Shown: piece after piece, positions 6,985 through 33,224 of the stretch
Layout: every line of letters starts with the position of its first letter
How positions within the stretch are numbered: position 1 is the first letter of the stretch
Assembly: GCA_964525635.1 (NCBI GenBank)
Contig: CAZGJX010000033.1
Span: 1-36,707 of the forward strand
Direction of reading: 5' to 3'
DNA length: 36,707 nucleotides
Origin: an uncultured archaeon
GTDB lineage: Archaea; Asgardarchaeota; Lokiarchaeia; Sigyniarchaeales; SOKP01
Notes under the pieces: model-generated
Seen by the model: only the letters and a program-made list of their open reading frames with translations
The model's database searches: none
What the model was told of the DNA's origin: nothing
Program-made: the position numbers and the translations under genes

Positions 6985-8177
6985 TTAATCTTGATTAAAC
7001 TTATCTCTTTTTTTTCCTAAATATGGCATAGCATGTTTATATCTTTTCATAATGAATCGAGAAATAACGATTCTCTGAATTTCACTTGTTCCTTCATATA
7101 TTTGATACAATTTTGCATCTCTAAATAATTTTTCAACTGGATATGTACGTAGATATCCATATCCTCCGAAAATCTGAATTGCTTCAGTAGTAACATTCAT
7201 AGCAACATCTGAAGCAAATGCCTTTGCAATTGAAAAGCTTAAATTATTATCTATTCCTTGATCTGCTTCCCAAGCAGCTTTATAGGTCAAAAGTCTTGCG
7301 GCTTCGATATCCTTATACATATTAGCAATTTTGAATTGAATTGCTTGATATTTTTCTATAGGTCTCCCAAAGACTTCTCTTTTTTTGGTATAATCTATGG
7401 AATATTCCATAGCAGAACGAGCACATCCAATAGCAAAAGCTCCAATAGCAGGACGTGTGTGAGCAAAGGTTTGCATTGCTAATACAAAACCCCTCCCAGG
7501 TTTTGCTAAAACATTCTCTTTTTTAACCCTGACATTTTTTAATGCTACTGAAACTGTATTAGAAGCTCTCTGCCCCAATTTAGGAATTTGTTTTCCTAAT
7601 CTTACTCCTTCTATATTAGTTGGTATAGTAAAAGCACCTATTCCTCGATGTTTCATTGAGGGATCTTTAGTAGCAAAAATAGTAATATAATCTCCATATC
7701 CCCCATTGGTTATCCAGAACTTTGTTCCATTTAAAATATATTCATCTCCATCCTTTTCTGCAAGACATTTCATATTAGCTACATCAGAGCCCATTGAAGG
7801 TTCAGAAGTAGCAAAAGTAATAAGCTTAAAATTACTAACCAATTCTGTTAGAATACGTTGCTTTTGTTCTTCAGTACCCCAATAATTATTGGTTCTGCTC
7901 CTAAATTATTATCAAATATAGAAGTTGCGATACCTGGACATGCAGATGCAATCTCTTCAACAACTATACAAGCATCTAATAATCCCAATCCTTGACCTCC
8001 ATATTCTTTAGGAATAGCTAGATTCAATAAATTCTGTTCCCATGCCTTCTTTAATATCTCTATTGGAAATTCTTCAGTTTCATCATATTTATGAGCAACA
8101 GGTAACACTTCATTAATTGCAAATTCTCTTGCCTTTTCTCTTAACTTAATTTGTTTTTCTGATAAATTAAAATCCAT
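6985..8177 (-). pseudogene. Acyl-CoA dehydrogenase split by a -1 frameshift (probably a sequencing error)
   Basis: ORFs 7848-8177 and 6985-7842 join as ..EPIIIG-GTEEQKQRIL.. if one G is added to the G4 run (CCCC 7877-7880). The SEPxxGSD, NGTKFWITNG, FGGYGY and IYEGTSEIQR motifs are intact. Confidence 0.88.
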
Positions 8178-14506: not shown

Positions 14507-14617
14507 AATCGTTCATATTTTAGTTTTATTAGGATTAATCATATATAAACCGAAATATTTTAAGTACTAATACTATTTATCTAATTATCAAGAAAATAAT
14601 CAATGAGGATTTAAAAT

Positions 14618-15064
14618 ATGCTATTTGATATTAATGATGAGGAGATTCATAGAATTAGATATATTTTTGGTACATTTGACGAAGATGAGAGTGGGAGTAT
14701 AACAATTAATGAAATAGGAAATATTTACAATGCACTTGGACATGAATTTTCTGAAAATGAGCTTACAGATATGATGAAAACTATTGATTTAAATAAAGAT
14801 GGCTATATTACTTTTCATGAGTTCCTAGGTTTGTATAAAAACCATGTATTCTTTAAAGTTCAAGAACAAAAACTAATTCAAGCTTTTAAAATATGCGATT
14901 GTGATGGAAATAAGTATGTCTCATTGGATGAATTAACACGAATTATGCATGAAGTAGGTGAGAGTTTAGATAATAAACAGATCAATGATATGTTGAAAGA
15001 AGTAGATAAGGATGGAGATGGAAGAATAAACTTCAGAGAATTCATCCAATTAATGAAGAAATAA
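14618..15064 (+). CDS. Calmodulin-like four-EF-hand Ca2+-binding protein
   Basis: Loops DEDESGSITINE (21-32), DLNKDGYITFHE (57-68), DCDGNKYVSLDE (94-105) and DKDGDGRINFRE (130-141) fall at the same residue positions as in calmodulin. Confidence 0.93.
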   Translation: MLFDINDEEIHRIRYIFGTFDEDESGSITINEIGNIYNALGHEFSENELTDMMKTIDLNKDGYITFHEFLGLYKNHVFFKVQEQKLIQAFKICDCDGNKYVSLDELTRIMHEVGESLDNKQINDMLKEVDKDGDGRINFREFIQLMKK

Positions 15065-15115: not shown

Positions 15116-17380
15116 TTATATATCAGCATTTAATTGTGAAATTAATAGATCTACTTTTTCATATGGGATATTTCCTAAAAATAGATAATCAATTATTTTA
15201 TTTAATGGAAGATCAAGCAAGCCCATATCCATATCATCAAGGGTGTCAATAAAATTCTTATCTAATTGTGCATTAGATATATCCTTTACCATTTCTTTTA
15301 GTAATTTGCGACCATTTGGATGAGTTAAAATCTCTTTTAATAAACTATATCGACTAAAAGATATCTTTAATTTTTGTTCAGAAGTCATATTAATAATTTT
15401 TTTCAGTTTTATATCTTCACTTGAACTACCCACCAAGATTTCGAATTCTCCACTTTCAACAACCCACGTCTTATATTTAGAATCCCAGTATGCAAAATCT
15501 CTCTCATTTAACATAAACTTAACTTTTTTAGCTTCCCCCACGTCTAATTCAATTTTTTTGAAAGCTTTTAATTCTTTAATTGGGCGAATAATGGTTGATT
15601 TTATATCTCTTACATAAACTTGTATTATTTCTTTTCCTTTTCTTGAACCTATGTTTTTTATAGTAACAAATAGCTCGAGTTCCATTTTATTCGTAATAGT
15701 CTCTTTATTAACTTCCAAATCTGTATATTCAAAGGTTGTATAAGATAATCCAAAACCAAAAGGGAATAATGGTTTTATTTTCTTTTTTTCATAATATCTA
15801 TATCCAATAAAAAGACCCTCTCCATAAATAACATCACGATTACCAAAATTAATAAAAGATGGATTATCTTCAAGTTTAATTGGAAAAGACTCAGATAATT
15901 TACCCGATGGATTGATTTTTCCAGTTAAAATATCCACAATGCTACTCCCAAATGCTTGTCCTGCTAACCATGCTTCAATAACTGCTGATGGATAGCTGAT
16001 CCAAGGCATTGTGACGGAGGAACCATTTGATAGAACAACAATCGTATTTTTTTGTACTTTGCAAATCTCTTCTATTAAATGATTATGAGATAAAGGTAGA
16101 TCCATATGCTTACGATCTCTTCCTTCGGTTTCGTATGATGGGGGTAACCCAGCGAATATTATGGCGACATCAACATTTTTAGATATATTAACTGCTTCCT
16201 GTATTAAATCCTCATTTATAGTATCTGAATTATAACCTTGAGCATAAAGTAATTCTCCTTTATTATCAACTCGGTTTTTTAAACATTCAAATGGAATATC
16301 TAATTTCGATGGAGTGATTTCTGAACTTCCTGCTCCTTGATAGCGAGGATTTAAAGCAAAGTCCCCTATTATCGCTATTTTCTTTAATTTTTCAATTTCT
16401 AAAGGTAAGATATTATTTTCATTTTTAAGTAATACAATTGATTCATTTGCAAATTCTCGAGCTAATTGGTGATGTGTTTCTCTATCATACTCACCTATAT
16501 CTTTACGATTTTCATAAGTTTTGAATATAGCTGTTAAAACTCTAAAAACGGCCTCATCAATTATTTTTTCATCTAATTTACCATTTTTAATAGCATTTAT
16601 TACTTCCTCATCGTGAAATTGGTTTTTAGTTGGCATCTCTAGGTCAAGTCCATTTTTTATACTATTTTCCTTATTGTTAGATGCCATCCAATCAGAAACA
16701 ACAAATCCTTTGAATCCCCATTCTTTTTTAAGTATATCACGTAGAAGAAAACTATTTTCCGAAGCATTAATACCATTTATTTTATTATATGAAGTCATGA
16801 TCGTCGTTGGTTGAGCTTTTTTTACAATTATTTCAAATCCCATAAGATATAATTCTCTCATTGTTCTTTCATTCACAATGGAATCCGATACAAAACGTTC
16901 ATATTCTTGATTATTTAAAGCAAAATGTTTAAGTGTAGTTCCTATTCCTTTACTTTGTACACCATTAACAAAAGCCACTCCTATTTCACCCGTCAATATA
17001 GGATCCTCAGAGTAATACTCGAAATTACGACCACATAATGGTGATCTTTTTAAGTTTACTCCTGGACCAAGAAGAATTTGAACATCTAATGAAATACATT
17101 CCTCTCCTAATGTTTCTCCTAACTTTTTAACAAGATCTGTATTCCATGAAGATGCTAAACCTGGAGAAGTAGGATAACAAGTAGATTCAATACCTTTCTT
17201 TACTATTCCTTCTAGTTCTGCTACTTTTCTTATACCATGAGGACCGTCAGCTAAAAATATAGAAGGAATATTTAATCGTTCAATAGGATAGGTTGTCCAA
17301 AATGTCTCTCCCGTTAATATTTGAACTTTTTCTTCAATTTGCATTTTATCAATAATGTCATTTATCACAGAATCTTCCAT
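15116..17380 (-). CDS. GH3 beta-glucosidase (cytoplasmic, with C-terminal FN3-like domain)
   Basis: ADGPHG, GRNFEYYSEDP, KHFALN, VSDW nucleophile motif, ETEGRDR and PFGFGLSYTTF; no signal peptide. Confidence 0.94.
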   Translation of the reverse strand: MEDSVINDIIDKMQIEEKVQILTGETFWTTYPIERLNIPSIFLADGPHGIRKVAELEGIVKKGIESTCYPTSPGLASSWNTDLVKKLGETLGEECISLDVQILLGPGVNLKRSPLCGRNFEYYSEDPILTGEIGVAFVNGVQSKGIGTTLKHFALNNQEYERFVSDSIVNERTMRELYLMGFEIIVKKAQPTTIMTSYNKINGINASENSFLLRDILKKEWGFKGFVVSDWMASNNKENSIKNGLDLEMPTKNQFHDEEVINAIKNGKLDEKIIDEAVFRVLTAIFKTYENRKDIGEYDRETHHQLAREFANESIVLLKNENNILPLEIEKLKKIAIIGDFALNPRYQGAGSSEITPSKLDIPFECLKNRVDNKGELLYAQGYNSDTINEDLIQEAVNISKNVDVAIIFAGLPPSYETEGRDRKHMDLPLSHNHLIEEICKVQKNTIVVLSNGSSVTMPWISYPSAVIEAWLAGQAFGSSIVDILTGKINPSGKLSESFPIKLEDNPSFINFGNRDVIYGEGLFIGYRYYEKKKIKPLFPFGFGLSYTTFEYTDLEVNKETITNKMELELFVTIKNIGSRKGKEIIQVYVRDIKSTIIRPIKELKAFKKIELDVGEAKKVKFMLNERDFAYWDSKYKTWVVESGEFEILVGSSSEDIKLKKIINMTSEQKLKISFSRYSLLKEILTHPNGRKLLKEMVKDISNAQLDKNFIDTLDDMDMGLLDLPLNKIIDYLFLGNIPYEKVDLLISQLNADI

Positions 17381-22963: not shown

Positions 22964-23773
22964 TTATTTTTTACCTTTAATGATTTCTTCTCCCAATTGT
23001 CTTTCATAATCTGATTTTACTTTCAAAAAGCATACAATTCCCCCGAAAGATTCTAATAATGATCCTGCTGGATTCTCATTATCAATAATTTTTGTTTTAA
23101 TCCCTCGGTTTCTAATAATCTGCAAGAGTTGATATACTCTGTTTTTTTGAGGATTATTATTTATATAATTAGTAGTGAGAATAATATATTCAGGATACAA
23201 TTTTAAGGGTTTATAATTTTTCTTTTTTTTCCCTCCTCTATAAATTAACTCTTCAATATCAATCAAAGTATATAAAACTAAACCTTCTTTTGGATTATTC
23301 AACCGTTTTTTTAAATTAGCAATAATTCGCCCACCCTCATCTACTTCGGCAGTCTTGATTGCCTCAAAATAATGTTTAGATTGAATAAATGCTGTCGCTT
23401 CATCATGATTCTGAATTGAACCTGATATAGATTTAAAGATGACTGAGTTGGGATTCTTTTCTTGAAACATCCATTTTTGATGAGATTTAATATGATTAAT
23501 AAAATCTTCTGAATATTTCTTCTTAATTGGATTGATTAGTATAATTATTCTGAGACCTTCACGAATAAATGGGCGAATAACATCAATAACCTCCTCAAAA
23601 TACTTATATTTTTGGGACTTTTCCATAAACGTATATTTTTTTTTTGATCTTAATATCTTTATAAATTTTACACGTTTGCTATATGCAATCCAAATTAAAA
23701 TATCTTTAGATTCTAATCCAATAAGGATTGCTACAGGATATCCTCGTGTTTGTCTTCTTTTTTTTTTCCCCAT
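22964..23773 (-). CDS. Pelota/aRF1-related protein comprising only middle and C-terminal-like domains
   Basis: C-terminal IID.E.PAG.LLESFGGIVCFLK matches the eRF1/pelota domain 3 ending. The N-part resembles domain 2. No N-domain and no GGQ motif. Confidence 0.6.
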   Translation of the reverse strand: MGKKKRRQTRGYPVAILIGLESKDILIWIAYSKRVKFIKILRSKKKYTFMEKSQKYKYFEEVIDVIRPFIREGLRIIILINPIKKKYSEDFINHIKSHQKWMFQEKNPNSVIFKSISGSIQNHDEATAFIQSKHYFEAIKTAEVDEGGRIIANLKKRLNNPKEGLVLYTLIDIEELIYRGGKKKKNYKPLKLYPEYIILTTNYINNNPQKNRVYQLLQIIRNRGIKTKIIDNENPAGSLLESFGGIVCFLKVKSDYERQLGEEIIKGKK

Positions 23774-24068: not shown

Positions 24069-26291
24069 ATGAGTAATGAAAAAAAGGTAGAGATTGAAAA
24101 ATTAATTTCTTATGGAAAATATAAAGACGCTTTAACTATTCTAAAATCTATAAAGAATGAAAGAACACTTTCTGACGATGAAATATTAACAAAAATGTAT
24201 ATTAAGATTTTTATTTATCTTGATAAAGGTTTTTTTGAGAAAGGTCGGAAATTAACCAAAAAGATGATGGATGAAGCAAAAAAAAAAAAAAATTCTTTAA
24301 GAGAAATCGATGCAATTTCTGGAAGAATAGAACATAATTTACCATCTCGTTTATTAATTGATTCTTATGAATTATTGGATAAATCGGAAGAAATATTAAA
24401 TAAATTACAGGATAGGAATAACAATGAAATAAAGAAGAGAGAAGCTTATATATTATATTTAAGGGCTAGGACTCTCCATTATGATCACAAATTTGTAGAA
24501 GCATTAGGTTATTATGAAAAGAGCTATGAACTTAGAAAAGAAATTCAAGATAAATTTGGAATGATGTATTCATTGTTGAATTGGGGTTCACTTTTGACAG
24601 TATTTGGAAATTTTGAAGATTCAAGAAGTAAGATTAACCAAAGTTTATCTCTAGCAGAAGAATTAAACCTTGAGGTTGCGATAAGCTGGAGCCTTATCAA
24701 TTTGGCGTGGATCGAATATAGTGTTAGAGATTCTGATAAGGCAATTTCTTATATAGAAAAATGTCTCTTAATATGTGAACTTAAAAATAATTCATATCAA
24801 ATTGCATTGTGTAATAACACTCTTGGAACTATCATGTATGAAAAAGGTGACTATAAAGAAGCCATTTCCTTAATTAATAAATCTCTTAATTTAGCTCTAG
24901 AATTGGGGGATCCTATGAATTTAGCAACAATATACAACAATCTAGCTACTATATATAGCCAAACAGGAGAATTTAAAAAAGCAAAAGAATATTGTAGTAA
25001 AATATTAGAATTTCCTGATGTTTTAAACACTCTTACATTTAAAACCTTATTTTTAACTACTATAGGAAAAATTCATGGAGAATGTGGTGATTTTATAAAG
25101 GCAAAAGAATCATTATTAGAAGCTCTTGATTCAATAAATGATCTAAATATGGTAATATATTATTTTCGGAATTATAAAGCTACTATTGCAAAAATCTACC
25201 ACTATTTAATCATTCTTTCTCTTAATAATAAAGAATTTATAGAAGCGAATCTATATCTGAAAGAATTATTAGAGGTAAGTAAAAAAAATGCTTCATTCAA
25301 ACAAATTGACCAAATATATCTCTTAGATAAAGCAAGTATTTTAAAATCATCGGATCGATTGGTTGATAAAATGCAAGCTGAGGTTATTCTAAAAGAGCTT
25401 ATTAAAGAAGAACATGCTGATTATGATACTACTATTGAAGCTATGGTAATTTTATGCGAATTATTACTATATGAATTAGAATTATCTGGAAATGAAAATA
25501 TCTTTAATGAAATAGAACAAATTACTGATAAATTGCTAAATATCTCGAAATCTCAAAATCTATATAATGTTTTATCGGAAACATATTTTTTTAAAGCAAA
25601 ACTTTCTCTCCTCCATTTAAATACTAAAGAAGCACGCTATTTACTTACAAAAGCTCAAAATATTGCTAAAGAACATGGATTAACAAGATTAGCAAATAAA
25701 ATATCATCTGAGCATGATTCCTTCTTAGAACATTTAGATGAATGGGAAGAAAAAGTAAAGCAAGATGTACCTTTACAAGAATTATTGCAATTCACTCAAC
25801 ATGACTTTTTATACTCAAAGATGGTAAAACAAAAATTAGATAAATTAAATAAAGAAAATGAAACTGCAGTCTCCCTTCTCTTGCTTCATAGCTATGATGG
25901 AAGATGCTTTTATAATAGAGTCTTCGAGGAGATGAATATTAATGATGGAGATCTTATTACGAATTTTATTTCCGCAATTAATTCGTTTGGAAAAGAAGTT
26001 TTTTCTCATTCAGGGACAATTGATCGAATAAAGCATGGAGATTATATGATAGTATTTAATTCAAAAGGGGATTTATTATTTGGATATGTATTTAAAGGAC
26101 AATCGTATTCCGCTCTCTCTAAATTGGATTATTTTATTGATAATTTATATAACCTTGAAGATATTATTAGAGAGATTAAATCTTCAGTTCTTACTCATAT
26201 GGAGATATCAGCGAGATCATATCATAATATTAATAAATTGGCAGATGAAATCTTTGTTTTAAATAAAGGATTAGATATATTAGAGAACTAG
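24069..26291 (+). CDS. Tetratricopeptide-repeat protein with C-terminal longin-like domain
   Basis: Multiple TPRs (e.g. NTLGTIMYEKGDYKEAISLINKSL); C-terminal ~140 aa LLLL...DGRCFY...DLITNFISAINSFGKEVF...IDRIKHGDYMIVF. Confidence 0.8.
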   Translation: MSNEKKVEIEKLISYGKYKDALTILKSIKNERTLSDDEILTKMYIKIFIYLDKGFFEKGRKLTKKMMDEAKKKKNSLREIDAISGRIEHNLPSRLLIDSYELLDKSEEILNKLQDRNNNEIKKREAYILYLRARTLHYDHKFVEALGYYEKSYELRKEIQDKFGMMYSLLNWGSLLTVFGNFEDSRSKINQSLSLAEELNLEVAISWSLINLAWIEYSVRDSDKAISYIEKCLLICELKNNSYQIALCNNTLGTIMYEKGDYKEAISLINKSLNLALELGDPMNLATIYNNLATIYSQTGEFKKAKEYCSKILEFPDVLNTLTFKTLFLTTIGKIHGECGDFIKAKESLLEALDSINDLNMVIYYFRNYKATIAKIYHYLIILSLNNKEFIEANLYLKELLEVSKKNASFKQIDQIYLLDKASILKSSDRLVDKMQAEVILKELIKEEHADYDTTIEAMVILCELLLYELELSGNENIFNEIEQITDKLLNISKSQNLYNVLSETYFFKAKLSLLHLNTKEARYLLTKAQNIAKEHGLTRLANKISSEHDSFLEHLDEWEEKVKQDVPLQELLQFTQHDFLYSKMVKQKLDKLNKENETAVSLLLLHSYDGRCFYNRVFEEMNINDGDLITNFISAINSFGKEVFSHSGTIDRIKHGDYMIVFNSKGDLLFGYVFKGQSYSALSKLDYFIDNLYNLEDIIREIKSSVLTHMEISARSYHNINKLADEIFVLNKGLDILEN

Positions 26292-28189: not shown

Positions 28190-31100
28190 TTATTGATAAA
28201 AGTCGTTAAGCATTTCTTTAATAATTCTCTGTCGCTCATTAGGACTTAAAATTAACATTTCCTTGATAAATTCCTTCTTCTCATATTCGTTGTCCCAACT
28301 TAGTTTTTCAATATTTTCAAGGAAATCTTCTTGAAGTATAGTTATTCTTATATCTTTAAATTGATCAATTCTTCTCAGAAGTTCCTCCTCTTCAAAAATT
28401 TGAATAAGTCTACTATTGTCTAAAACATCAACTTCACTTTTTACGAAGATTTTATGATCTTTAGGTTTATCAGATGATGTTATCGGAGGAATTTTTTCCT
28501 TTCTTCGGTTTACTAGTACATATACAGAACCTACTAATGTTAATACAATTATAGCTATAATAGTTACAAGTAAAATCAAATCCTCTAGTTCAGGACCAAT
28601 TGCTCCTGGAATCGTCACACTTGTTTTATAGGAAGGATCACTAGGATAATCATTAACATCAACAGCTATAATTAAATAATAATATGTGTTACCAATAGTT
28701 ACATTTGTGTCTAAATATTCACTTATATTGGTTTCAGCAATTAAAGTTGATTCACTTTGTATAAAATTTTCTTGTAAACTTCTATAAACTAAATATTTAA
28801 CAAAATCTATCTCTGAATTATCATCCCAATCAAGGAAAACTTCGATTTGATTAAATAAACTGGTTGTAACTCCCGTTGGAGATGCTGGGGGCTCTGTATC
28901 AATATCAGTTGTAGCATTCACTTCTATCGATGAAGTACTTGGATTACCATATATATCGACAGCTATTACACAAAAATAGTAGGTTGTATCCTGATAAAGG
29001 AGAAAATTTAAAAATTCGTTAATATAAGTTTCAGCTATGAAATATGTACTATTTGGTGTAAATCCTGGTGTTATGCTTCTATAGATACGATATAAATCTA
29101 AATCTAGCTCCGGATTATCAGTCCAATTAATAAAGATTCTTGATGAATCATACACAAAAGCTTCTAAACCTGTAGGAGCTGCAGGTGGAGTAATGTCAGG
29201 ATCAGTTATATTGTATAATTCTATTGAAGGAAAACTTGGATTTCCATATATATCAACAGCTACTATACGATAATAATAGGTTGTTTCAGGTGTTAATCCA
29301 ATATCATAATAAAAACTATCTGTAGTGTTAGCTATATTTGTAGAGATATTTATTGCAAATTCTGGTGCTGTATCACGATAAATCCAATATATATCAAAAT
29401 CAGATTCTAAATTATTATTCCAATCAAGATCAATTCTCGTATCATTATAAGTTAAAACAGTAAATCCATTTGGAGATACTGGGGGTGTAATATCCGGATT
29501 TGTTGTATCGTTTACCTCTGATGATGGAGGACTTAAATTATTTGCTAAATCTACAGCTATTACCTGATAATAATATGTTGTATCTGGAGTTAATCCTATA
29601 TCTAAATAGTAACTTACGGTATTGTTAGCAATATTCGTTGAGAGATCAGGAGTAAATCCAGATGTTGTACCACGATAAATCCGATATCCATTAAAATCCG
29701 GGTCAGAATTGTCATCCCAATTAAGTAAAATACTTGATGTATCAATTACATTAGTGTTTAATCCCGTAGGAGATGCAGGAGGTATGCTATCCGAAGCTGT
29801 TGTATCATTTACCTCTGATGATGGAGTACTTGGATTACCATATATATCGACAGCTACCACACGGTAATAATAGGTTGTATTTGGAGTTAAATCTGTATCA
29901 TTATAATCACTGTTAATTGTCTCAGAGATCAAATTTGAAATACTAGGTGTAAATCCTTGAGTTATACTTCGATAAACGCGATAAATATTAATATCTGGTT
30001 CGGAATTATTATCCCAATCAAGATCTATTCTCGTATCATTATAAGTCTGAACTGTGAGTCCTATTGGAGCTGATGGAGGAGTCTTATCTGAGAATGTTGT
30101 TGTATTTACTTCTAGTGAGGGTGAACTTGGATTACCAAAAAAGTCCACTGCGATCACTTTATAATAATATGTGGTTCCATTATCTAATCCTAAATTAAAA
30201 TATTCACTGATACTAGTTACTGCGATTAAATTACCATTAGGATCAAAACCCGGTGTAGTACTTCGATAAACTCGATAATTGTTGAAATCCGGTTCAAGAT
30301 TATCCTTCCAATCAAGTTGAATACTAGTCCCATTATATGGTTCTGCTGTAAGACCTGTTGGTGCTGCAGGTGGATCTGAATACAAAGCTTCTAGGGGTTC
30401 TTGACCAAATATTAATGTATCATTATCGTATACTGGAATAAATTCTGATGGAATTGGGTTGGAATTTAATCCTTGAAAAGACCAATCATTTGTAGGGTCC
30501 CACGCAGAAGGAGGGGCCCCGGATGGTAATTCAATTCTTATTTGAGACTCTCTAGCAGCTTTTGTTTCGTCACCTGGATAGATACTTGAACCTGTATAAT
30601 CGACTATTATATAATATGTATCATTAAAAAGGTGAATTAATCCTGAAACAGTTACTGGAACTTCAGAACTCTGTGGTAAAATACTAATATTTGCAATAGT
30701 ATAATTTGCTTCGAATACTTCGCTTAAATTGAAAAAGTATCTATACGAAAGGTTATCACCTACTTTGGCTGGCCAAGTTGCATGGTTTGATAGATCGCCA
30801 GCAAATTGCATTACTATATCTTCATCAACTATAAGACGTGCATTGCAATAATATTCAAGACCAGTTGTATTTTTTGGAATAAACCAATTTGGACCTGGAA
30901 AATCGGTATGTGGAGTCCCACCATACAATTCTGTCATTTTTGCAAGTGCTCCAATCAATCCTGAATTGTAATCTAATGCAACTCTATTAGTTGTGGAAAC
31001 TGATCTATCATTAATCCAAAAATCTCCACCATCAGCAGGACCACTCACAAGAGCGCCATATATGATATGGGAATTATTAATAGGATCATCAATATTTCTA

Positions 31101-32419
31101 TTCCATGAGCCATGAGCTGTACTATGACGTATCTTTTGCCAATAACTATTTCCAAATCCTATTAAATAGCTTGTACCATAAGTATTATTACCAAGAATAT
31201 AATTAATTTGGGATTTATAGAAATCTTGATATATTGGAACATTTGCTTGAGTACAATTTGGATCATCTGACCATACCGCAGCTAAAAATGCCTCGTTAGC
31301 GGCAAAACGAAGGGTTCCCTCACCTCCTCCCCAGTTAGCTCTATAATAAGCAAGTCCTCCTGGAGTATAATGGTTAGCACCATTTACCCACCAATCTAAA
31401 TTTCGTTCTATTGATTCTTTATAAGTTTGATTACCTGTTTCTCTAAACAATAAAATTTGGGCTAAATAATGCATATCATCCCAAGTATGGGTTGATGTAT
31501 ATTTAATATCAGAATTATCTTTTTTCCAGTGAATTACTGCTTGCTGAGCATCATCTAAATATGTAGAAATATGTGTTGCATTATATAATAATATTCCTGC
31601 AGCAGACAATTCGTCCCAAAATCCATTTTTTGAACTATAATCTCCCGCATAGGAATTATAATAATTATCCGACAAGCTTGTCCAAGCAAGTGTATAGAGG
31701 TCTTGTGCATGAGATAATAATTTTGCAGCATATCCCGGATTTGAAACTTCAAATACAATTGAGGAAAATACGAGAGCAGCTGCAGTTGCCGCAGCAACTG
31801 TGGAACCATGATTTGTTTGATCTATTTTATAAGAAGGGCGAGTTAGAAATTTATCAACCACCTCAACAGGACCCCACCATGCATAATCGTCATTAGGATT
31901 TCCAACTTGGAAATAATATTCATTTGGAGCTGTATGACATTTTAAAATATAATCTGTACCCCATTTAATAGTATCAAGAATTTCATCTAATTGTCCAATA
32001 CTATTAAAAACATCTTCATACTCATACACAGCCCAAGCTAATGTAGCAATTGTGGATGCCAAAGGAAGTCCTGATTTCACATAACCATCATCATCAAAAT
32101 ATCCTCCAATTAGATCTTTACCTACATCTGAACCATCATTAAGACATGAATCACCTCTCCATATTACAGTATTATTATCCGGTAAATCTCCTGATCTTTG
32201 TTGTTGATAGAAATATATTGCTTTTTGGAGAGCAGCAGCGTAATTGTCAGGCGATTCCATTGGAGGTGACCAATTTGTTTGAGGAATTATATTTGAATTA
32301 TTATTAAAATTTTTCAAAGAGGGAAGAGAAAATAGTGGATCAAATGAACCAATAGAAAATGTACTAACTATTAAGGCGATGAGTATACTTGCATATATTT
32401 TTTGTTTGCGATTTGCCAT
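28190..32419 (-). CDS. Cell-surface protein: signal peptide - GH9 (catalytic residues substituted) - CBM3-like - 6x FN3 - TM - cytoplasmic tail
   Basis: GH9 motifs FY..QRSG.LP...V.WRGDS, KWGTDY.LK.H, DEL.AA, QINYILG.N, TAHGSW and GALV.GP; CBM3c-like N...WPA....LSYRYFFNLSE...WDPTNDWS; six FN3 repeats; TM followed by RRKEK. Confidence 0.93.
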   Translation of the reverse strand: MANRKQKIYASILIALIVSTFSIGSFDPLFSLPSLKNFNNNSNIIPQTNWSPPMESPDNYAAALQKAIYFYQQQRSGDLPDNNTVIWRGDSCLNDGSDVGKDLIGGYFDDDGYVKSGLPLASTIATLAWAVYEYEDVFNSIGQLDEILDTIKWGTDYILKCHTAPNEYYFQVGNPNDDYAWWGPVEVVDKFLTRPSYKIDQTNHGSTVAAATAAALVFSSIVFEVSNPGYAAKLLSHAQDLYTLAWTSLSDNYYNSYAGDYSSKNGFWDELSAAGILLYNATHISTYLDDAQQAVIHWKKDNSDIKYTSTHTWDDMHYLAQILLFRETGNQTYKESIERNLDWWVNGANHYTPGGLAYYRANWGGGEGTLRFAANEAFLAAVWSDDPNCTQANVPIYQDFYKSQINYILGNNTYGTSYLIGFGNSYWQKIRHSTAHGSWNRNIDDPINNSHIIYGALVSGPADGGDFWINDRSVSTTNRVALDYNSGLIGALAKMTELYGGTPHTDFPGPNWFIPKNTTGLEYYCNARLIVDEDIVMQFAGDLSNHATWPAKVGDNLSYRYFFNLSEVFEANYTIANISILPQSSEVPVTVSGLIHLFNDTYYIIVDYTGSSIYPGDETKAARESQIRIELPSGAPPSAWDPTNDWSFQGLNSNPIPSEFIPVYDNDTLIFGQEPLEALYSDPPAAPTGLTAEPYNGTSIQLDWKDNLEPDFNNYRVYRSTTPGFDPNGNLIAVTSISEYFNLGLDNGTTYYYKVIAVDFFGNPSSPSLEVNTTTFSDKTPPSAPIGLTVQTYNDTRIDLDWDNNSEPDINIYRVYRSITQGFTPSISNLISETINSDYNDTDLTPNTTYYYRVVAVDIYGNPSTPSSEVNDTTASDSIPPASPTGLNTNVIDTSSILLNWDDNSDPDFNGYRIYRGTTSGFTPDLSTNIANNTVSYYLDIGLTPDTTYYYQVIAVDLANNLSPPSSEVNDTTNPDITPPVSPNGFTVLTYNDTRIDLDWNNNLESDFDIYWIYRDTAPEFAINISTNIANTTDSFYYDIGLTPETTYYYRIVAVDIYGNPSFPSIELYNITDPDITPPAAPTGLEAFVYDSSRIFINWTDNPELDLDLYRIYRSITPGFTPNSTYFIAETYINEFLNFLLYQDTTYYFCVIAVDIYGNPSTSSIEVNATTDIDTEPPASPTGVTTSLFNQIEVFLDWDDNSEIDFVKYLVYRSLQENFIQSESTLIAETNISEYLDTNVTIGNTYYYLIIAVDVNDYPSDPSYKTSVTIPGAIGPELEDLILLVTIIAIIVLTLVGSVYVLVNRRKEKIPPITSSDKPKDHKIFVKSEVDVLDNSRLIQIFEEEELLRRIDQFKDIRITILQEDFLENIEKLSWDNEYEKKEFIKEMLILSPNERQRIIKEMLNDFYQ
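28611..30376 (-). repeat. Six tandem ~300-nt fibronectin type III coding repeats
   Basis: Unit D..PP..P.G......D...I.L.W.DN.E.D...Y.IYR....GF.P.....IA......Y.D.GL...TTYYY.V.AVD..GNPS.PS.EV..TT occurs six times. Confidence 0.92.
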
Positions 32420-32666: not shown

Positions 32667-33224
32667 TTAAAACTTAATAATTCCTGCTCTATTCTTTATT
32701 AATTTTGTAATTTCTTCAAACGTGTAATCAACATTTTCTCCCGTTTTAGCAGAACATTCTTGATATGAATACAAATTTTGGTTATATACTATCTTTTCTG
32801 CTTGTTCTCTAGATATAACTCGTTTATATTTTAGGTCGGATTTTCCTCCTACTAAAATAATTGGTAAAGTAGTACCTTCCATCTTTACATCATAGCCTTT
32901 TCTAAACATATTAATCCACTCCTCAAAATGTCTAATACTTTCAAAATTTGTCATATCGAACATAAAAAGTGCTGCATTACAACCATTTACGAATGCAGGT
33001 AAAAGAAATCTGTATCTATCTTCTGCTGTGAAATCCCATATTTGTAAAGACATTTCATGATTATCAATCTCAATTCTTTTAGAATAAAAATCAACGCCTT
33101 CAATCTTTGAGTAAAATGTATGATAAAATCCAGTTAAGTATCGATTTATAAGTGAAGTTTTACCTACCCCATTATCACCAAAAATGCATATTTTAAATAC
33201 AATTTCACTTTGCAAAGTAAGCAT
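32667..33224 (-). CDS. Rab-like small GTPase with divergent G2/G3/G4 motifs
   Basis: FKICIFGDNGVGKTS (G1), GVDF, LQIWDFTAEDRYRFL, VGGKSDL and ECSAKTGENV; no C-terminal prenylation Cys. Confidence 0.92.
   Translation of the reverse strand: MLTLQSEIVFKICIFGDNGVGKTSLINRYLTGFYHTFYSKIEGVDFYSKRIEIDNHEMSLQIWDFTAEDRYRFLLPAFVNGCNAALFMFDMTNFESIRHFEEWINMFRKGYDVKMEGTTLPIILVGGKSDLKYKRVISREQAEKIVYNQNLYSYQECSAKTGENVDYTFEEITKLIKNRAGIIKF

Follow-up and report, generated by a model that had tools for sequence, protein, structure and literature searches.

The open reading frame at positions 14618-15064 (+) of the DNA analyzed here, a whole contig of 36,707 nt (hereafter the window) from a 4.45-Mb Lokiarchaeia genome rated 100% complete, encodes a 148-aa protein with four EF-hands. 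The protein is predicted to be a calmodulin-fold Ca2+ protein outside calmodulin proper, and it belongs to a real and, it seems, undescribed gene family that we call family A. In our preferred reading, to which we assign a probability of about one half, it is a stand-alone, calmodulin-derived Ca2+ switch, now accessory, that one Lokiarchaeia family obtained at an early time, with a eukaryote as the most likely source. Our literature search found no paper on Asgard calmodulin-like proteins; many subscription papers lay outside the search, and a listing in the supplement of PMC12962969 is possible. Calmodulin and EF-hands are unmentioned in the main text of three 2026 surveys of Asgard eukaryotic signature proteins, and NCBI labels the members of family A only as 'EF-hand domain-containing protein'.

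Sequence Features of the Gene and Its Product

The ORF contains no internal stop codon, and its assignment is based on the sequence, on PDB and structure matches and on homologs. A putative Shine-Dalgarno-like GAGGA is located at 14605-14609 (+), 8 nt upstream of the ATG, where a preliminary description of this DNA had pointed out a GAGG word, and similar purine-rich words are found upstream of most homologs. A candidate archaeal BRE/TATA-like stretch, picked out by eye at 14550-14566 (+), sits within the 111 nt that separate the gene from the CbiQ-family gene before it, a very AT-rich region where such a match may be due to chance. The gene had been described as AT-rich like its neighbors, in agreement with its GC content of 28.2% (26.8% for the genome) and its host-like codon use: among host genes, GC3 ranks at the 89th percentile and codon fit at the 12th, and neither leaves the host range.

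The four EF-hand loops recognized in the preliminary description fall at residues 21-32 (14678-14713, +), 57-68 (14786-14821, +), 94-105 (14897-14932, +), and 130-141 (15005-15040, +). Every loop, loop 3 included, retains Ca2+ ligand positions 1, 3, 5, and 12 in 32/32 family A sequences. Loop 1 has invariant D1, D3, and E12 with Ser or Asn at position 5 in 32/32, and loop 2 is the most conserved of the four among these 32 sequences, with D1, N3, D5, T9, F10, and E12 invariant in all of them. Gly at position 6 is kept in the N-lobe loops, in 7/32 EF3 loops and in 1/32 EF4 loops, the last being that of the window protein itself; its own EF3 has Lys at this position (Lys99), as had been noticed before. 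The central linker (residues 74-84; 14837-14869, +) has the length found in calmodulin, as it does in 31/32 family A sequences, and is modelled within a helix of residues 66-93. Its earlier portrayal as hydrophobic and basic is borne out for hydrophobicity (Kyte-Doolittle score of -0.83 versus -2.26 for calmodulin) and hardly for charge, the linker being barely more basic than that of calmodulin. The idea of a stiffer linker was dropped, as helix propensity on a crude scale shows no difference (0.39 versus 0.42 for calmodulin).

Similarity to Calmodulin and Centrin

In a phmmer search against the PDB, residues 4-146 align to calmodulin residues 4-146 without a gap (E ~1e-30 to 1e-32). The ungapped identity to six calmodulins is 49-56/148 (33-39%), and Foldseek, whose top matches are calmodulin and centrin, reports 36% identity to 1CLL, a vertebrate calmodulin, across 144 columns; the earlier hand count of about 53/148 identities therefore stands, and the calmodulin motifs that it placed between the loops are present in the sequence. 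Two AlphaFold models, one of them built from family sequences only, are two-lobed with four EF-hands (pLDDT 84), and it is in these models only that a single continuous central helix of residues 66-93 is predicted. Structure prediction of two copies plus Ca2+ returned a score of 0.00, which counts neither for nor against a homodimer. The lobes are in register with those of calmodulin (in-register minus crossed score of 0.76 per column, bootstrap P 0.0002), a similarity result in favor of a lobe duplication shared with calmodulin. The Loki N-lobe did not group with eukaryotic N-lobes in a lobe tree, whose 66 columns are too few for lobe-level rooting, and AU tests on 66 columns rejected neither an independent lobe duplication (p 0.51) nor a duplication shared with calmodulin. 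Two-lobed models, calmodulin spacing with 0 gap columns and the canonical ligands agree with a place in the calmodulin-fold four-EF-hand superfamily (calmodulin/centrin/troponin C type).

Family A has the same length, gap-free four-EF-hand spacing, and lobe order as eukaryotic calmodulin (PDB 1CLL, vertebrate; 1CLM and 1OSA, Paramecium; 8AHT, Plasmodium), together with a dumbbell model, most core aromatics and the C-lobe Met109/124/145 pocket. It is nevertheless not calmodulin proper: the above identity of 33-39% compares with 75-84% by lobe among the calmodulins sampled, and the combination of Met-rich pockets, Phe92, and acidic rims is not kept across the family. Phe92, just before EF loop 3, is replaced by Cys93 in 31/32 sequences. 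In the N-lobe, other residues stand in for the Met patch (M36Y, M71L, M72Y, M76V), with M51 retained, while in the C-lobe M109, M124, and M145, the pocket residues F141 and L105 and the acidic E114/E127 are kept and M144 is changed to Leu. Positions E11 and E84 of calmodulin are mostly Lys or Arg, K115 is Ser or Asn, and the net charge is -13 compared to -25 for calmodulin. Calmodulin is universal, whereas family A is accessory and patchy.

Centrin (caltractin) has the same spacing, a predicted continuous central helix and a similar net charge (about -14). However, family A is 35-37% identical to centrins by lobe, lacks the N-terminal extension (the protein begins at the first helix), and has intact EF3 ligands, the canonical EF3 set being present in 0/8 centrins used here. 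The centrin clade (100/99) excludes family A, which never grouped with it at starred support in the free ML trees. A match to NCBIfam XopAW was rejected at 49 bits against a cut-off of 120. Two-EF-hand domains with a Cys before the first loop, like EF3 of family A, were also seen elsewhere (L072:311-562, L073:858-1112, and L075), a likeness biased by the fact that they were chosen by that very pattern; L072 looks eukaryotic and the neighbors of L073 are virus-like.

Genomic Setting and Gene Neighborhoods

The best database matches outside family A are eukaryotic, as would be expected if eukaryotic DNA had contaminated the assembly or been joined to it in a chimera. Against this, three further assemblies reproduce the window across the gene at 99.9-100% over 935-4706 bp, archaeal genes surround 31 full-length relatives, homologs with archaeal neighbors are found on contigs of 128 and 663 kb, and within genus g1 of the host's family the gene tree equals the host tree. 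Contamination, already called unlikely in the preliminary description, is not credible because independent genomes carry the same gene, and we regard its probability as practically negligible.

The window also encodes a Ras-family small GTPase (32667-33224, -) and a stand-alone archaeal ThrRS editing domain (1119-1541, -). Upstream of the gene, the segment 8403-14506 (+) codes for two membrane-anchored proteins, a molybdopterin-oxidoreductase-like domain and an ECF-type transporter (S component, double ATPase, CbiQ), and downstream lies a GH3 glycosidase (15116-17380, -). Further genes of the window specify a GH9 cellulase-family protein of 1409 aa that has a fibronectin III stalk and is membrane-anchored at its C terminus (28190-32419, -), a large TPR-like protein (24069-26291, +), and a protein with a weak match to eRF1 domain 3 (22964-23773, -). 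An acyl-CoA dehydrogenase-like gene at 6985-8177 (-) appears to be split into two ORFs of 109 and 285 aa, perhaps due to a frameshift.

Family A genes occur in at least six different neighborhoods: beside the ECF transporter and GH3 genes in the window, nikR in other g1 genomes, proS in genus g10 and others, and MFS/FGGY genes for the divergent member P0033. In two species of genus g5 the gene is located within the trp operon between trpB and trpA (L064; L054:6763-9311); the trpB-trpA gap in the genome of the window is 173 bp with nothing between. An operon partner was sought among the five window neighbors, and none of them was found near 18 homolog loci.

The host genome encodes two Ca2+/cation exchangers, two SERCA-type pumps and gelsolin-domain proteins, which we infer to fit a low-Ca2+ cytoplasm where a Ca2+ sensor would be useful. 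One SERCA-type P-type ATPase gene adjoins a Ca2+/cation exchanger gene (G000:C2:57366-61707), likely forming a Ca2+ export cluster. A pump as the target was considered and rejected, as the type II ATPases of the host have no PMCA-like tail, and a search of the host genome, run without a positive control, gave no IQ-family match. Thus no partner is in sight.

Distribution of Families A and B

Family A has about 33 members with 45-78% identity. In a survey of 400 Asgard genomes, 135 of them from the Lokiarchaeia family of the host (f1), it was found in 10/135 f1 genomes, comprising all four of genus g1, two of six in g5, and four of ten in g10; the host of P0033 appears close to g9, a fourth genus. 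It was found in 0/54 and 0/42 genomes of the two largest f1 genera, where a control gene was recovered in 50/54 and 33/42, so the absence is real there. On the RpoA1 host tree the carriers are spread over three or more separate branches. (For the genome of the window, the RpoA1 match, L153 at G000:C71, begins at profile position 70 and has one in-frame TAA, perhaps an assembly error.) Within g1 the family A tree agrees with that of the hosts. Most dN/dS values are 0.11-0.3 where dS is measurable (0.37-0.51 in three pairs), and synonymous sites are near saturation between genera. These results argue that the gene is old in f1 and under purifying selection, and they make a recent transfer, raised in the preliminary description as a possible outcome, unlikely. 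One record (L062, JBHLLE01, G172) is labelled Candidatus Hermodarchaeota; genome placement assigns it to genus g10 of the window's Lokiarchaeia family.

The distribution across Asgard genomes, also proposed earlier as a check, is narrow, with no member of family A found in Asgard genomes outside the host's order. Outside the class, a protein query and PF13499 detected no calmodulin-collinear four-hand protein in a set of about 240 Asgard genomes, which presumably include the lineages nearest eukaryotes. A eukaryotic signature protein that eukaryotes inherited vertically from Asgard archaea should be sister to its eukaryotic homologs and present in several Asgard classes; the AU tests do not reject such a sister position, and calmodulin-collinear types were found in one order only. 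There was no bacterial member of family A among 185,579 species represented by one genome each and no family A relative of viral origin in IMG/VR or a phage collection.

A second calmodulin-sized four-hand type, family B (P0193 and P0194), occurs in two genomes of family f3 of the same order, at L011:1492-1944 (-) and L012:41-529 (+), and is carried by three assemblies; one of its genes adjoins a formate-tetrahydrofolate ligase gene. P0193 aligns to calmodulin with 0 gaps and 41/138 identities, and family B is 23-26% identical to family A. Two single-contig f3 genomes (4.4 and 6.0 Mb) contain neither A nor B. In other Asgard genomes, those of family f15, a two-EF-hand protein of 76 aa is present along with calerythrin-like proteins, all non-collinear with calmodulin (L014:349-579, L035:1180-1752, and L013:1522-1935).

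Calmodulin-Spaced Proteins in Myxococcota

Four-EF-hand, calmodulin-spaced proteins were detected in 7/251 Myxococcota genomes (L087-L092 and L094, from G584, G458, G554, G464, G519, G594, and G409); their alignments to calmodulin contain 0-5 gap columns and 38-52/138 identities. One of them, L088, aligns to calmodulin with 0 gaps and 50/138 identities, compared to 52/138 for the window protein. The GC content around these genes (62-73%) suits a myxobacterial host, and their linkers are Pro-rich and variable in length. We found no paper on these proteins, which may bear on the origin of calmodulin as much as the archaeal family does. The preliminary description reasoned that prokaryotic EF-hand proteins usually differ in spacing and that collinearity sets this protein apart; since Myxococcota share the calmodulin spacing, that argument is not supported, and collinearity alone is no pointer to an archaeal origin. 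Many Myxococcota genomes also encode single-lobe, two-EF-hand proteins of ~70 aa that are 30-50% identical to a calmodulin lobe and often end in a Trp-Trp motif (L065-L067, L093, and L095-L116).

Bacterial calmodulin-like EF-hand proteins (Schaffer et al., 2020, PMC7016017; the Myxococcota four-hand proteins; calerythrin- and calsymin-like proteins) resemble family A in being prokaryotic and intronless with three or four EF-hands. The Myxococcota four-hand proteins have the calmodulin spacing in common with family A, but the identity by lobe is 27/31%, compared to 37/40% between family A and calmodulin. Rhizobium and Streptomyces plasmid proteins match at about 24-27%, with gaps.

Phylogenetic Analysis

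Free ML trees were computed under LG+C20+F+G4 from sets of 92 and 41 rows; for the 92-row tree, in which the bootstrap was not fully settled, 17 rows were left out (near-duplicates and three poorly aligned multi-repeat proteins). The reference set was without intact troponin C, myosin light chains, calcineurin B, centrin-3, and cyanobacterial calmodulin-like proteins. Family A was recovered at 100/99 and joined at 97/90 and 93/88 to P0138, a eukaryote-like calmodulin-like protein on a transcript-like contig; the composition of P0138 is biased, so this join may be false. The backbone radiates star-like from canonical calmodulin, no donor clade for family A was found, and families A and B were not joined. 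Myxococcota rows split from family A at 95/81 in the 41-row tree. AU tests did not reject monophyly of eukaryotes with all prokaryotic rows outside (p 0.53), the union of family A with Myxococcota (p 0.51), or that of families A and B (p 0.54), and each constrained tree scored slightly above the free tree. The tests thus reject none of the origins and the trees do not decide between them.

Discussion

We prefer an old eukaryotic transfer because of the narrow range of family A, the absence in other Asgard classes, the mobility of the locus, and the closer match to calmodulin. In this view, an early arrival in a single Lokiarchaeia family, with a eukaryotic donor most likely, was followed by inheritance within some genera and movement between loci, and most lineages lack the gene. 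The preliminary description offered a pre-eukaryotic Ca2+ sensor or a transfer from a eukaryote; the transfer fits the distribution better, and the AU tests reject neither. The first of these options, a relic of an archaeal proto-calmodulin that the Asgard forebear shared by Lokiarchaeia and eukaryotes would have possessed, and of which A and B survived massive loss, draws on several observations: neither eukaryote monophyly nor A plus B monophyly is rejected, the order includes another family with a second collinear type (P0193), family A is found in four or more genera that branch separately in the host tree, and a patchy occurrence among Asgard genomes is seen for many eukaryotic signature proteins (PMC12962969). 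We consider it quite improbable, since it requires many independent losses, leaves about 240 Asgard genomes outside the class without a calmodulin-collinear four-hand protein, and has to accommodate an identity of only 23-26% between A and B, which the free trees do not join.

A bacterial origin, either from a pool of calmodulin-spaced EF-hand proteins scattered across prokaryotes or by doubling of a two-hand lobe, appears unlikely to us. The seven Myxococcota genomes with four-hand proteins and the many single-lobe versions would supply such a pool, the union of family A with Myxococcota is not rejected, and the sections consulted of Schaffer et al. (2020; PMC7016017) infer a cyanobacterial or actinobacterial source for calmodulin, naming only the calcineurin phosphatase as Asgard-derived and giving no archaeal version of calmodulin. 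Family A is nonetheless closer to calmodulin than to the Myxococcota proteins, which split off at 95/81 in the 41-row tree, and no bacterial member of it turned up in the scan of 185,579 species.

In terms of function, Ca2+ would fill all four EF-hands, as the invariant ligands suggest, and each lobe would then open a hydrophobic pocket, as the calmodulin fold leads one to expect, so that the opened lobes could bind a host protein whose gene lies elsewhere. Its altered pockets and lower negative charge suggest that the protein has a narrow range of partners, unlike the broad one of calmodulin. The protein could instead be a Ca2+ buffer or store that acts without a protein partner, like bacterial calerythrin, and for which the question of origin would be the same. 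All four Ca2+ sites are retained, Tyr and Leu occupy the N-lobe Met patch, the E11 and E84 positions are mostly Lys or Arg, and no partner gene travels with family A, all of which such a role would accommodate. We find it rather doubtful, because the kept C-lobe pocket (M109, M124, M145, F141, and L105, with acidic E114/E127) and the fixed linker length point to more constraint than a buffer seems to need.

If the transfer reading is true, family A records an old eukaryote-to-Asgard transfer and cautions against treating every eukaryote-like Asgard gene as ancestral. If family A is instead a relic, A and B would be archaeal sisters of the calmodulin/centrin ancestor, and the Asgard host, not a bacterium, would have supplied the central eukaryotic Ca2+ sensor. 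Loki A, Loki B, and the Myxococcota proteins make up three prokaryotic calmodulin-spaced groups that provide material for testing the origin of calmodulin. Whichever origin applies, family A offers a small, expressible natural variant for learning what the calmodulin fold does without the targets of calmodulin.
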